Positions 1-2,061 of a stretch of 4,159 nucleotides of DNA are shown here, in pieces. The notes beneath the pieces were generated by a model. It did not search any database. It worked only from the letters and a program-made list of their open reading frames with translations, and was not told where the DNA came from. This DNA comes from Escherichia coli (lineage in GTDB: Bacteria > Pseudomonadota > Gammaproteobacteria > Enterobacterales > Enterobacteriaceae), in the NCBI RefSeq assembly GCF_003334255.1, contig NZ_QOWU01000110.1; one strand, given 5' to 3'. The translations under genes were made by a program, and so were the position numbers. Every line of letters begins with the position of its first letter. The first letter of the stretch is position 1.

Positions 1-2061
1 GCGGAACAGATGATCCGGCTGTTTTTCTGGTGTGTTGACGGCAGCAAAAAGCGGTGCCTCACGGGTTTTCAGATGAAACTCCATAAGTTCCGGCGCAGGT
101 GATATGTGGCTGTCTGCATCGTGATTTACGGCAACACCATACCCTGCATACCGTAACCCCTTATCGGTCAGTGCACTGATGACCAGCTGGCTGTTATCGG
201 CTGAGGGAACGGCAAACGCGGGATACAGCGTACCATTAAGCCGGACAACACCGCCCAGAGAGTCATCCACGCCCATGACCAGCAAAAGCTGAAGCTGGCG
301 GGTTTCCCGGTCGACAGAACTCATTACCGGCATCAGCGTCGGTAGCAGACGTCCCTGCGTAAAATCCACCTTCCTTGCTGCCAGTGATGGCATGGCTGGC
401 TGGCGGTCTTCTCCAAGACAGAAAGACTCCGGCCATGTCTTCGGCTGGCGGAGATTGCGGGTATATTGCGGCCATGTCTGGCAAACCTGCGTCAGAAGTT
501 GCTCAAAGGTCGCAGAGGAATAAACACGTTGCAGTGGTGGATGTTGACCGATTTCGCTTCGGTCACAGATATAACCACTCCTGTCACGCATTAAATCAAC
601 ACGCTCAAAGATTCTGGTGCGGTATTTCTCCAGCTCGTTCCCCCAGAGCGTGTATTCTCCGTTCCGGTTGTGAAGCAGAAGGTAACAGGTCATTTCCCCG
701 TTACCAGGCATGGGGGCCTCGCCATACCCCGTAACGACTGCGCTCAGTACCCCTGAATCCATAACGGCATTGTCATTTTTCCTGAGCTGTTCCGCTCGTC
801 GCTCCGCGCGACTACGTTCTGTATCCTCCTGCTCCTTCCGGCGCAATTCCTCTTCACGTTTAAGCAACTGGACTCTGAGAGCTGCAAGGCCGGATGCCCC
901 CCACTGCTGCCACTGTTTTTCAAATGCCGTCTGACTCGCGGGAATGTCCTGTTTCTCCACCTTCCGGTAATGCTGTCGCAATTTTTCCATTTGCTGGCTC
1001 AGCGACTGGATTTTTCCCTGTTCGCTACGGTATTCCGGTGCCGCCCATTGCATCAGGGGAATACGGGAAAAACCGGACGAAAACGGCGATGATTTTTTCA
1101 GGCTGGCAGCATGGCTCATCGCTTCCTTTCGTTCGGTGTTCAGCTCTTCCCAGCGTCTGCGCGTCGCCTGCATATCTGCCATCATCGACATGGCATTACT
1201 GGTGAGTTTCCATGCCGCATTACTGTCCTTCGGCAACGCTTCGATGATGTCACGTAGTGTGTACGAAGTTGCGTTGTCAGGAAGCACGATATTCAGAAGG
1301 TCAGCCACACGGCGGGCAGGCTCTGTCAGCCCGCTGTTTCTGAGTTCGGTACGGGAAATCTGTATTTCCAGGTTAAGTCTGTTAATCAGACGATTCTGTT
1401 CGCCGCGTTCTGTTTCGATACCGCGTGTTTCCATCGCACAGGCAGACTTTCCGAGGTGAATACCAGGCGTTTTCTCAAGCCCCTGTCGCTCGTATGAACG
1501 ATGGTCTATCTCTTCCTGATAACCGGCGTTCGCCAGTGCCCTGTTCGCATGGTCAGCCCATGATGCACGCCACGTCTCGGCATGTGTCCGGTCGTTCCAG
1601 TCCCTGACCTTTCCACCGAATCCAGCAGGTCCGACAGCTCTCGTGGTCAGCATGATGTGCGCATGGGGATTTGTTTTATCCATGTGATGGAACGCCACAT
1701 CAGCAATCATGCCCTGACTGACAAAGTTTTCTCTGACAAAGGCGAGAACGGTTTCCCGTGCGGCATCCTGCGGTAGTTCGCGGGGGATGGCGAGTTCAAT
1801 TTCCCGCGCAAGTTGTGAGTTCTTCCGGCGTTCGGCCTTCTCAACGGCATTCCAGAGTTCGGCACGGTTCGTACACCAGGCAGGGGCTGTCGCGGGAGTC
1901 AGAATCACAGCTTCAGCCACACCGCTTTTGCGGGTGTAGTCGTGAGTCAGTCCGGTACGCTCATCAAGCATCAGTGAACCGGAACGATAGGCAGCAGAAG
2001 CAACGGCGCTGTAGCCGCTGTTTCTGGAGATGATTTTCATGCTGAGATGATAAATCGCCAT
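1..2061 (-). CDS. mobA: MOBQ-family conjugative relaxase MobA, N-terminal 687 codons; the ORF runs off the window start and continues at 4082..3984 on the circle
   Basis: Hand translation of the minus strand from ATG at 2061..2059 gives MAIYHLSMKIISRNSGYSAVASAAYRSGSLMLDERTGLTHDYTRKSGV, with Tyr at residue 25 as in RSF1010 MobA. Further in are a histidine-rich motif HHMDKTNPHAHIMLTTR and WADHANRALANAGYQEEIDHRSYERQGLEKTPGIHLG, which closely parallels the RSF1010 MobA segment WADHANRALERAGHDARIDHRTLEAQGIERLPGVHLG (quoted from memory). I checked every in-frame plus-strand triplet from 1 to 2061 and found no TTA, CTA or TCA, so there is no stop on the minus strand. A second in-frame ATG at 2040 is less likely because the MAIYHLS start is the conserved family N-terminus. 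The SD is weak (AAGG/ACGG 5-14 nt upstream). Confidence 0.9.
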   Translation of the reverse strand, partial: MAIYHLSMKIISRNSGYSAVASAAYRSGSLMLDERTGLTHDYTRKSGVAEAVILTPATAPAWCTNRAELWNAVEKAERRKNSQLAREIELAIPRELPQDAARETVLAFVRENFVSQGMIADVAFHHMDKTNPHAHIMLTTRAVGPAGFGGKVRDWNDRTHAETWRASWADHANRALANAGYQEEIDHRSYERQGLEKTPGIHLGKSACAMETRGIETERGEQNRLINRLNLEIQISRTELRNSGLTEPARRVADLLNIVLPDNATSYTLRDIIEALPKDSNAAWKLTSNAMSMMADMQATRRRWEELNTERKEAMSHAASLKKSSPFSSGFSRIPLMQWAAPEYRSEQGKIQSLSQQMEKLRQHYRKVEKQDIPASQTAFEKQWQQWGASGLAALRVQLLKREEELRRKEQEDTERSRAERRAEQLRKNDNAVMDSGVLSAVVTGYGEAPMPGNGEMTCYLLLHNRNGEYTLWGNELEKYRTRIFERVDLMRDRSGYICDRSEIGQHPPLQRVYSSATFEQLLTQVCQTWPQYTRNLRQPKTWPESFCLGEDRQPAMPSLAARKVDFTQGRLLPTLMPVMSSVDRETRQLQLLLVMGVDDSLGGVVRLNGTLYPAFAVPSADNSQLVISALTDKGLRYAGYGVAVNHDADSHISPAPELMEFHLKTREAPLFAAVNTPEKQPDHLFR

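Follow-up and report, generated by a model that had tools for sequence, protein, structure and literature searches.

The C-terminal ~280 residues of MobQ (MobA), the relaxase of a small Escherichia coli plasmid, are on sequence comparison clearly homologous to the non-primase C-terminal module of Sog, the primase of IncI/K-type plasmids. We put at an even chance the reading that this module serves in docking to, or translocation by, I-type secretion systems and would thereby recruit the relaxase-DNA complex. The object itself is already known, and "low homology to SogL primases" was remarked in one sentence of a 2019 paper (PMC6856555). To this we add that the shared part is a non-primase module, together with its distribution, its repeated acquisition, the selection acting on it and a structural model of its fold.

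The DNA analyzed here is a stretch of 4,159 nucleotides (the window). Its initial 77 nt recur at positions 4083-4159 as a terminal repeat, so it is a complete circle of 4082 bp. This circle is 100% identical to NZ_LR890408.1 and 99.9% identical to pSE11-6 (NC_011411), and is a small cryptic E. coli plasmid of the MOBQ41 family, whose frequency is ~8% of complete E. coli genomes. It has the features of that group, namely a Rep_3 initiator with iterons, mobA, a divergent mobC and near-identity to pSE11-6, itself classed as MOBQ4 (PMC6856555). Three iterons of ~22 bp each lie at 2834-2928 and the RepM/RepE-like (Rep_3) initiator at 3027-3728, bearing out a preliminary description of this DNA that had named an iteron replicon with no obvious need for a primase; the Rep_3/iteron replicon does not depend on a plasmid primase. 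The 84-aa relaxase accessory protein MobC, whose role is non-essential (PMC6856555), is encoded on the forward strand at 2240-2494 (RefSeq annotation of the identical plasmid). It is transcribed divergently from mobQ, and the 178 bp that separate the two genes (2062-2239) hold the oriT region (location from PMC6856555).

Reconstruction of the open reading frame on the circularized sequence places mobQ on the reverse strand across the circle junction, from an ATG at 2061 down to position 1 (codons 1-687 of 719) and then from 4082 to 3987 (codons 688-719), with its stop codon at 3984-3986. The product of 719 aa starts with MAIYHLS and ends in RGWSQ, and RefSeq annotates it on the identical plasmid as mobQ, a MobQ family relaxase (WP_001029343.1); both the length and the terminal residues agree with the preliminary description. 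A start at ATG 2040 (712 aa) was rejected, since the ATG further upstream, at 2061, yields the conserved beginning MAIYHLS and the length of 719 aa in the annotation. The peptides quoted earlier were all found, LLKREEELRRKEQEDTERSRAERRAEQLRK at residues 399-428 and MTCYLLLHNRNGEY... beginning at residue 457. The interval 1-1075 previously given for the C-terminal half covers residues 330-687 and leaves outside the last 32 codons at 3987-4082. Within mobQ we found no good internal start from which a C-terminal product could be translated separately; the sole candidate, M451, has a Shine-Dalgarno-like match of 4 nt spaced 2 nt away.

The MOBQ (HUH) relaxase domain occupies residues 1-215 (1417-2061, reverse strand) and, as had been proposed, is restricted to the N-terminus. 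The Pfam model MobA_MobL (PF03389) covers residues 18-213 (E 1.1e-70), the NCBIfam MobQ model (NF041496) scores 248.7 bits against a cutoff of 200, and sequence matches in the PDB are to relaxase domains only, those of NES (4HT4, E 2e-24) and MobA (2NS6, E 2e-8). Residues Y25, E87, E89, H125, H133 and H135 are all present and invariant among relatives (alignment A3), providing the catalytic tyrosine of motif I, the acidic motif II and the HUH-type histidine triad of motif III; the same catalytic residues are named in PMC6856555. Residues ~240-719, by contrast with this domain, match nothing in Pfam, NCBIfam, the PDB (single sequence or profile), PHROGs or PADLOC.

The earlier statement that no function could be assigned to the C-terminal half holds in that no named domain is found there; homology to the Sog C-terminus at E ~1e-67 nevertheless shows that an assignment is possible. 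The module comprises residues 439-687 at positions 1-747 of the reverse strand and continues to residue 719 at 3987-4082, with boundaries drawn from blastp, profile and AFDB50 matches. By blastp it is 44.8% identical to IncI-gamma Sog (E 6e-68) and 42.8% identical to IncK2/Z Sog (E 5e-67), with MobQ 439-698/704 aligning to Sog 947-1231 and 1030-1320, so that its counterpart is the C-terminal ~290 residues of Sog from IncI/K-type plasmids. A profile match extends over profile positions 2-316 (E 6e-107), and the AFDB50 matches consist of MobQ fragments and primases named Sog, SogS or TraC, and nothing else. Pfam places the Toprim domain of Sog at ~266-365 and LPD7 at ~776-861, and has no model for Sog 947-1255. 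LPD7 (PF18821) is present in Sog and absent from MobQ by Pfam; what the relaxases acquired is limited to the module that follows it. The module sits at the extreme C-terminus in all 19 full-length carriers analyzed. The preliminary description had held that a clear match to a characterized relaxase-primase or annotated domain would make the region ordinary, and this applies only by half: the match is to a characterized protein, but to a part of it without annotated function.

Between relaxase and module lies a middle region (residues 216-438; 748-1416, reverse strand), delimited from a full-length AlphaFold model, natural variants and dN/dS. In that model, which was built from six sequences with pLDDT 64 and pTM 0.34 and was used for secondary structure only, a low-confidence linker is followed by a helical part with two very long predicted helices at 288-324 and 342-427 (window 781-1200), much of whose length reaches pLDDT 70-92 despite low overall confidence. 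The Arg/Glu/Lys/Gln-rich segment noted previously as coiled-coil-like falls within these predicted helices. Two PADLOC matches on the helical region (E ~0.01) resemble coiled-coil noise. The middle region has no homologue outside the MOBQ4 relaxases, and its dN/dS is 0.12-0.35. It is missing from the relative P0104 (our identifier, as are those below) and from four natural in-frame deletion variants (P0135, P0136, P0138 and P0139), giving the helical spacer a dispensable look. These natural deletions take out the spacer and leave the module, a pattern subject to ascertainment bias in that out-of-frame deletions are not retrievable as one protein.

The distribution of the module is narrow. Among 1.84 billion representatives, searched exhaustively with HMMER, only 80 proteins were found with it, and a word-indexed profile search added no diversity. 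The full-length carriers that were classified are all Sog-type primases or MOBQ4-type relaxases. The six conjugative carriers examined are without exception I-type plasmids, and in each the gene occupies the same slot, traJ-traK/icmT-[gene]-traL-traM/dotI-traN/dotH; one more carrier was typed only as "mobilizable" (MOB-suite), yet has the same operon. The module is confined to MOBQ4 relaxases and to primases whose genes lie within I-type (Dot/Icm-like) transfer operons.

Within this set, the relaxase-borne modules are polyphyletic, with monophyly recovered in 0 of 200 bootstraps. The modules of relaxases P0104 and P0083 are 77% and 61% identical to that of the primase P0097 and only ~25% identical to the window's. 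P0083 is MOBQ41-like through the first small barrel, after which a complete P0097-type module has been added, and its junction looks like a recombination scar. These relationships indicate that relaxases acquired the module at least twice, from different primase lineages. P0104- and P0083-type relaxases were not found in PLSDB at >60% identity. In a comparison of two I-type plasmids with T4SS proteins 30-65% identical, identity is 93% for the Sog primase domain, 48% for LPD7 and 28% for the module. This comparison indicates that the module tracks the secretion apparatus, whereas the primase domain has been exchanged.

Published mobilization data bear on the same association. The IncI1 plasmid R64drd11 is the most efficient helper and pCTX-M3 (IncM) is efficient too; RP4, R751 and R6K mobilize MOBQ4 plasmids less efficiently, F-type helpers are unsuitable, and R388 and pKM101 give no transfer (PMC6856555). 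Mobilization by R64drd11 and pCTX-M3 implies that MobQ can be exported by I-type systems. The Pri protein of pCTX-M3 carries the module (E 1e-40), and the module was not found in R388 or R751 (first 50 kb, including TraC), even at E<=10. Since R751 mobilizes MOBQ4 plasmids without it, the module is not the sole route to a T4SS. In addition, tblastn located the module at a single place per IncI plasmid in nearly all records listed, so the cognate IncI relaxase NikB evidently needs no such module. In genomes, mobQ co-occurs with IncI-type Sog at an odds ratio of 2.09; we dropped this as evidence because the F traC control gives 2.06, and the enrichment reflects plasmid-rich genomes.

In the docking model that we favor, the N-terminal HUH relaxase would nick oriT and remain covalently attached to the transferred strand, and the helical spacer would join it to module 439-719. 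The module would then present this complex of relaxase and DNA to an I-type helper's apparatus for coupling and secretion, either by occupying the receptor site that normally recognizes Sog or by co-assembling with Sog itself. The helper's channel would in this way become usable by a plasmid carrying just a relaxase and MobC. This reading agrees with the published finding of R64 and pCTX-M3 as the best helpers. Recognition of the module by the secretion system is a step that we infer beyond the homology, boundaries, distribution, selection, exchange and lack of primase features described here. The preliminary description was right to list an interaction or coupling domain among the live options. 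A broader proposal, which we hold somewhat more tentatively than an even chance, is that type IVB (Dot/Icm-like) conjugation systems recognize the Sog C-terminal module as a folded and portable domain of their secretion substrates. Small mobilizable plasmids would have repeatedly captured the version of their current helper lineage and fused it to their relaxase, making helper specificity an exchangeable cassette.

The predicted structure of the module allows other functions to be weighed. Its model consists of a small beta-barrel, an eight-stranded beta-barrel and a C-terminal helix. Subdomain 1, the small barrel (residues 439-500; 562-747, reverse strand; AlphaFold on alignment A2, with alignments A1 and A2), has strands at 438-450, 457-465, 468-473 and 487-491 with pLDDT 66-76, holds the invariant L463 and W473-G474, and is shorter in MobQ than in Sog by ~25 residues. 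Helices at 516-537 are followed by the core barrel of about eight long strands at 546-675 (together 40-516, reverse strand), which includes the conserved stretch A630-x-T632-xx-G635-xxxx-G640-x-G642. The last part, at 3987-4082 on the reverse strand, contains the conserved LGF motif, a C-terminal helix predicted by AlphaFold at 695-715 and an Arg/Glu-rich tail, ...WDEWRREEDARTHATERRHDRGWSQ. The invariant module positions L, WG, G, G, G, P and GF are present in MobQ (alignment A2). Conserved residues are Gly, Leu, Trp, Phe, Pro and Ala together with Q603, T632 and N646, and no column that is >=80% conserved is Asp, Glu or His; this pattern suggests a scaffold or binding surface rather than an enzyme. 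A PDB profile search of the C-terminal half gave no match. Fold searches with the model returned beta-barrels and no primase fold, and neither these nor the PDB profile search found a solved structural relative.

One rival reading is that the module binds single-stranded DNA, coating and protecting the transferred strand in the case of Sog, and holding or protecting the T-strand beside the relaxase, in donor or recipient, in the case of MobQ. We regard this as rather unlikely. The structural matches are weak, OB-fold-like only and below significance, no basic residue is conserved family-wide, and the window's module is acidic (net -5, pI 5.9), with a shortened small barrel of net charge -1. 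Binding to single-stranded DNA would also leave unexplained the divergence of the module with T4SS lineage, the exchange of the primase domain and the lineage-matched versions in relaxases.

A limited C-terminal segment of sog is reportedly required for R64 conjugation. Transposon sequencing of the IncI1 plasmid pESBL scored SogS at 1.00 as "required for transfer" and found 26% of SogL non-essential (PMC4288162); in these data a contribution of the module cannot be told apart from one of LPD7 or from polarity. Because this screen counts transconjugants, a defect in establishment would read in the same way as a defect in transfer, which leaves room for the module to act in the recipient as a delivered effector or establishment domain, for instance one that recruits host replication or priming factors or counters a host response. 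Sog and relaxases are both known translocated proteins, Sog leaving IncI-type donors by way of their Dot/Icm-like (MPF_I, type IVB) conjugation machinery, in hundreds of copies and without any requirement for DNA (PMC8406263), and Sog is a polyvalent-type protein with LPD7, a class proposed to deliver functions to the new host (PMC5512222). However, the module matches no defense, anti-defense or phage family in PADLOC or PHROGs, it shows no enzyme-like conserved residues, and its co-divergence with the donor T4SS and lineage-matched exchange would not be expected, although these last arguments are indirect. We consider such a recipient role unlikely, and slightly more so than binding to single-stranded DNA.

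The module could also have no function and be left over from an ancient recombination with sog, a reading favored by the access of the relaxase to the T4SS of RP4-type helpers that lack the module and by one truncated natural variant (P0150). Selection makes this very improbable. Module dN/dS is 0.17-0.32 across several pairs, including a very divergent MOBQ42 relative, and the module is under purifying selection. Its reading frame is unbroken over ~840 nt in hundreds of plasmids, even though it takes up one fifth of a 4-kb plasmid, and its independent acquisition by different relaxase lineages is likewise hard to reconcile with a remnant.

Finally, the earlier suggestion of a divergent DNA primase that primes the complementary strand after transfer, for which the RSF1010 MobA-RepB' precedent and the database name "DNA primase, partial" on Sog fragments holding only the module could be cited, is rejected as scarcely credible, given homology at Sog 947-1231, outside Toprim, the presence of the module in primase-less UniProt entries named SogS (844 aa), the lack of conserved residues of an acidic or catalytic type, and fold searches without a primase fold.

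How a relaxase is recognized by the coupling machinery of a helper is a long-standing question, most of all for I-type systems, through which plasmids encoding ESBLs and carbapenemases (IncI1, IncK, IncL/M) are disseminated. If the module is the recognition element, it would constitute a discrete, swappable determinant of helper range, a handle on the SogS requirement in IncI transfer, and a domain for engineering or blocking the delivery of protein and DNA via type IVB systems. Were helper specificity a cassette, it could be reprogrammed by module exchange. Should its role instead lie in binding single-stranded DNA or in the recipient, the module would still be an uncharacterized domain on thousands of clinically important plasmids, with neither a Pfam entry nor a solved structure.

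The closest known counterparts are SogL and SogS of R64 and ColIb-P9 and the Sog-type Pri/TraC proteins of IncK/B/O/Z, IncL/M and other MPF_I plasmids, which share ~270 homologous residues with MobQ at 43-45% identity. They resemble it in the extreme C-terminal position of the module, in the order of small barrel, helices, large barrel, LGF motif and terminal helix, and in their I-type association. In MobQ, however, a helical spacer joins the module to a MOBQ relaxase, whereas in Sog it follows a Toprim primase, a Pro/Glu-rich linker and LPD7, and the tail reads ...SPGR in Sog primases and ...RHDRGWSQ in MobQ. Among MOBQ4 relaxases (MOBQ41: pIGWZ12, pSE11-6 and pE2022_4; MOBQ42: ColE9-J; Garcillan-Barcia et al. 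2019, PMC6856555), the window's is a MOBQ41 member, and its plasmid does not differ from pSE11-6-like MOBQ41 plasmids in its Rep_3 replicon, divergent mobC and cryptic 4-kb backbone. The identity of the shared Sog part, its link to helper choice, the second module type (P0083 and P0104) and the structure are not described in that study.

MobA-RepB' of RSF1010/R1162 (MOBQ1) likewise combines an N-terminal MOBQ HUH relaxase with a large C-terminal extension drawn from another plasmid function. That extension is a primase, whereas the one in MobQ resembles a RepB'-type primase in neither sequence nor fold; nor does the module have the Toprim domain of the Sog N-terminal domain, RP4 TraC or DnaG-like primases. 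NES of pLW1043/pSK41 (MOBQ, 4HT4) is the closest solved relative of the MobQ relaxase domain (E 2e-24), and its C-terminal domain, reportedly found in 2013 by Edwards et al. to be needed for function, is helical. The C-terminal half of MobQ matches no PDB chain by sequence, and its module is modeled as beta-rich.

Recognition of a non-catalytic part by a coupling protein is familiar from TSA/TSB of F/R1 TraI and from the C-terminal signals of Dot/Icm and VirB/D4 substrates. The TraI elements are helicase-associated domains of MOBF relaxases with no sequence or fold relation to the MobQ module. Dot/Icm signals are short, mostly unstructured C-terminal peptides, whereas the candidate in MobQ is folded, spans ~280 residues and has its counterpart in a protein that the helper itself exports.

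The relaxase gene mobQ (mobA in the preliminary description) lies on the minus strand, running from an ATG at 2061 (MAIYHLS...) down to 1, over the junction and on to 3987, with its stop codon at 3984-3986. Window positions 1-1075 encode residues 330-687, and the final 32 codons occupy 3987-4082. The product is 719 aa long both by our reading and by RefSeq annotation, as the preliminary description had it, and it contains all of the peptides quoted there. The relaxase domain is indeed confined to the N-terminus: the Pfam MobA_MobL match spans residues 18-213 (E 1e-70), NCBIfam MobQ scores above its curated cutoff, and PDB sequence matches are restricted to two relaxase domains, those of NES (4HT4) and MobA (2NS6). 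Past approximately residue 240 we found no match in Pfam, NCBIfam, the PDB (by sequence or profile), PHROGs or PADLOC, bearing out the earlier view that the C-terminal half lacks a recognisable named domain. The charged segment described as coiled-coil-like falls within two very long predicted helices (residues 288-324 and 342-427), in a model of low confidence (pLDDT 64). Two ORFs lie antisense to the C-terminal half on the plus strand (375-734, 119 aa; 894-1205, 103 aa). Neither is annotated in any identical record, and both are most likely spurious, because it is on the mobQ frame that purifying selection acts.

Since its first 77 nt recur at 4083-4159, the window represents a 4082-bp circle. 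Its sequence matches that of E. coli plasmid NZ_LR890408.1 at 100% identity and those of pSE11-6 (NC_011411) and many others at 99.9%. PLSDB holds approximately 600 matching records, nearly all typed as mobilisable MOBQ, and the C-terminal half of mobQ is found in 440 of 5426 complete E. coli genomes. The MOBQ41 backbone was defined by Garcillan-Barcia et al. 2019, with pSE11-6 listed as a member (PMC6856555). Besides mobQ, the plasmid carries two genes: mobC (2240-2494, plus strand) and a RepM/RepE-like initiator of the Rep_3 type (3027-3728). Three iterons of ~22 bp upstream of the latter (2834-2928) confirm the iteron-type origin that had been proposed. The A+T-rich stretch upstream of the iterons contains a tandem pair of a 14-nt unit (2758-2785, TTTTTAGATCTTGT / TTTTAAGATCTTGT) with one GATC site per unit, which may be part of the origin, e.g. 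a Dam/SeqA site or a DnaA/IHF region. RefSeq names the 84-aa mobC product 'relaxase accessory protein MobC'; it matches no NCBIfam family at E ≤ 0.01, and no homology of MobC to other accessory proteins has been reported (PMC6856555). The mobC start codon is uncertain, as relatives carry a 96-aa annotation. Directly downstream of mobC, at 2504-2562, lies a ~60-nt GC-rich element (…CCGCTCGCCGCAG…CGACCGAGCG…GAGCGAG…GCGAGGAAGCGGAAG…) that recurs at 85-92% identity, usually unannotated, in at least 5000 records for plasmids of every size, and forms two predicted hairpins on the minus strand (z -2.4). We presume a resemblance to the PriA-type primosome assembly, or single-strand initiation, site beside the pBR322/ColE1 origin; if it is such a site, this would explain why the plasmid needs no primase of its own after transfer.

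A search with MobQ residues 429-719 returned near-identical plasmid copies, plus E. coli proteins ~44% identical that carry the names 'DNA primase' or 'LPD7 domain-containing protein' and, by tblastn, sit in conjugative plasmids of 85-120 kb. In IncI-gamma/K1 and IncK2/Z plasmids the matching ORF (1255-1338 aa) is flanked by traJ-traK(-nuc) on one side and traL-traM-traN on the other, just where R64 and ColIb-P9 carry sog. One record annotates the carrier gene as sogL, and the structural matches include UniProt entries with the name SogS. In blastp alignments, Sog 947-1231 pairs with MobQ 439-698 at 44.8% identity (E 6e-68), and residues 1030-1320 of the IncK2/Z protein pair with MobQ 439-704. 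Pfam places Toprim at approximately 266-365 and LPD7 at approximately 776-861 of Sog, with no match in 947-1255; what MobQ shares with Sog is therefore an unnamed stretch at the latter's extreme C-terminus. This segment (hereafter the module, MobQ 439-719) is present in both the 1255-aa SogL and the primase-less 844-aa SogS (PMC6112013). A single published line credits the MOBQ4 C-terminal domain with 'low homology to SogL primases' (PMC6856555), which is correct but obscures that the shared part is non-primase.

Across 1.84 billion representative proteins scanned exhaustively with HMMER, only 80 matched the module, and structural matches in AFDB50 were limited to MobQ fragments and primases named Sog, SogS or TraC, from Enterobacterales and Pseudomonas. 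Sorted by N-terminus, the full-length carriers comprise 5 MOBQ4-type relaxases, 13 primases with a Sog-type N-terminus and LPD7, and one protein with LPD7 only (P0063). In every conjugative carrier examined (IncI-gamma/K1, IncK2/Z, Klebsiella, Serratia and P. syringae plasmids and the IncL/M plasmid pCTX-M3, all typed MPF_I), the gene sits at one and the same place in a Dot/Icm-like transfer operon. The same operon is found on NZ_CP055049, which carries a primase of the P0097 type and is typed by MOB-suite as mobilisable only. A six-frame profile scan, whose positive controls scored E 4e-136 and 7e-38, detected no trace of the module in R388 or in the first 50 kb of R751, TraC primase included. 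Copies 93-100% identical have been deposited under Gardnerella vaginalis (a MAG), Bacteroides ovatus, Lactobacillus crispatus, Bifidobacterium longum and a Myxococcus species (P0004; AFDB A0A7J4XQ41, A0AAW6XIY5, A0A540WGM9, A0A9P4BE32 and A0ABD4ZHE7); these are most likely contamination or mis-binning of a very common small plasmid.

With dN/dS of 0.17-0.32, the module is under purifying selection (relaxase domain, 0.09-0.15; middle region, 0.12-0.35). Against records L010 and L011, dS falls from 0.67 over the relaxase domain to 0.17-0.20 downstream of it, and the pattern is reversed against a MOBQ42 plasmid (L005; 0.72 and > 1.7). This discordance along mobQ (window 1417-2061 versus 1-1416) points to recombination between the halves, at the domain boundary. 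Relaxase-borne copies are polyphyletic in the module tree, with monophyly in 0 of 200 bootstraps. The window, relaxase P0058 and a MOBQ42-type 6.7-kb colicin plasmid form one clade beside the IncI/K Sog modules, while the modules of relaxases P0104 and P0083 group with primase P0097 (100% bootstrap; 77% and 61% identity, respectively, and ~25% to the window's module). What P0104 has in common with the window is limited to the relaxase domain (71% identity over 1-241), which a short charged linker joins to its module. P0083 (L009 838-3312, on a 7.4-kb Rep_3 plasmid from SRR23994534) is a mosaic in which a MOBQ41-like part, 59% identical to window residues 8-505 and including the first small barrel, precedes a complete P0097-type module, so that the small barrel is present twice. 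Relaxases therefore gained the module on two or more occasions, and from primases of different lineages. Four variants on 3.6-3.7-kb contigs (P0135, P0136, P0138 and P0139) have differing in-frame deletions in the helical middle region (approximately residues 252-360, 252-391, 283-454 and 308-463); each still has both relaxase domain and module, and P0104 wholly lacks the middle region. This suggests that the helical spacer is dispensable, in a sample biased by the fact that out-of-frame deletions are not retrievable as a single protein.

Sog proteins are transferred to recipients (PMC6112013); a passage in PMC8406263 that cites Wilkins and Thomas 2000 puts this at hundreds of copies and describes it as DNA-independent. 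When the IncI1 plasmid pESBL was analysed by transposon sequencing, SogS scored 1.00 as 'required for transfer' and SogL 0.26 as non-essential and 0.74 as required (PMC4288162), consistent with a dispensable primase-specific N-terminus. The best helper for MOBQ4 plasmids is R64drd11 (MPF_I) and pCTX-M3 (MPF_I) is efficient; RP4, R751 and R6K mobilise them more weakly, and F-type plasmids, R388 and pKM101 not at all (PMC6856555). Both efficient helper types encode the module, and R751 and R388 lack it. The best-supported reading, at about even odds, is that the I-type coupling and secretion apparatus recognises Sog through this module, or alternatively that Sog molecules assemble through it, and that its capture by MOBQ4 relaxases would admit the relaxase-DNA complex to that apparatus. 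Against such a recognition role, the pESBL data do not separate the module from LPD7, polar effects or a recipient role, the cognate IncI relaxase NikB lacks the module, and RP4-type helpers work without it. By inclusion-exclusion on search counts across the 5426 genomes, mobQ and IncI-type Sog primase DNA co-occur in 102 genomes versus 59 expected (OR 2.09, p 6e-9), but the F traC control gave an OR of 2.06 by the same procedure, so this enrichment is not specific to I-type plasmids and reflects plasmid-rich genomes. Small-plasmid carriage thus follows general plasmid load, a confounder for helper arguments based on co-occurrence.

The AlphaFold2 model of the module (19-sequence alignment, mean pLDDT 80.4, pTM 0.69, pLDDT > 90 across most of 508-708) predicts a small beta-barrel (MobQ 438-491), helices (516-534), a large beta-rich domain of approximately eight long strands (546-675), a short helix (683-688) and a terminal helix (695-715), a fold for which we found no solved relative. 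Columns conserved at ≥ 80% hold Gly, Leu, Trp, Phe, Pro, Ala and Val together with Q603, T632 and N646, and no acidic, His or basic residues, a pattern that fits a scaffold or binding module rather than an enzyme. Binding of single-stranded DNA, in line with old speculation on Sog and with weak OB-like hits, is unlikely given the lack of conserved basic residues, and would leave the lineage matching unexplained; the net charge of the window's module is -5. A recipient-side role in establishment or as an effector, in the cells to which Sog is delivered, seems slightly less probable still. That the region is a functionless remnant is highly improbable in view of purifying selection and repeated acquisition, and the divergent primase entertained in the preliminary description is rejected, as the region shared with Sog is not its primase part.

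The plasmid, its relaxase family, its helper preference and the bare Sog homology are all already published. Added here are the exact mapping to a non-primase, SogS-borne module limited to MOBQ4 relaxases and I-type systems, a prediction of its fold, purifying selection on it, and the finding that relaxases captured it in lineage-matched form two or more times independently. A 'function unknown' region thereby yields a specific, cheaply testable hypothesis on helper choice by mobilisable plasmids. We also add a distinction within Sog itself, between an exchangeable primase domain and a lineage-specific module. Between the IncI-gamma/K1 sog (L002 6619-10386) and that of a P0097-type, IncK2/Z-typed plasmid (L008 3265-6924), the primase domain (residues 1-400) is 93% identical, the LPD7 segment 48% and the C-terminal module 28%, with flanking T4SS proteins at 30-65%. 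These identities indicate that the primase domain alone was recently exchanged: across the two transfer systems, the primase behaves as cargo open to exchange, and the C-terminal module is tied to the transfer-system lineage.
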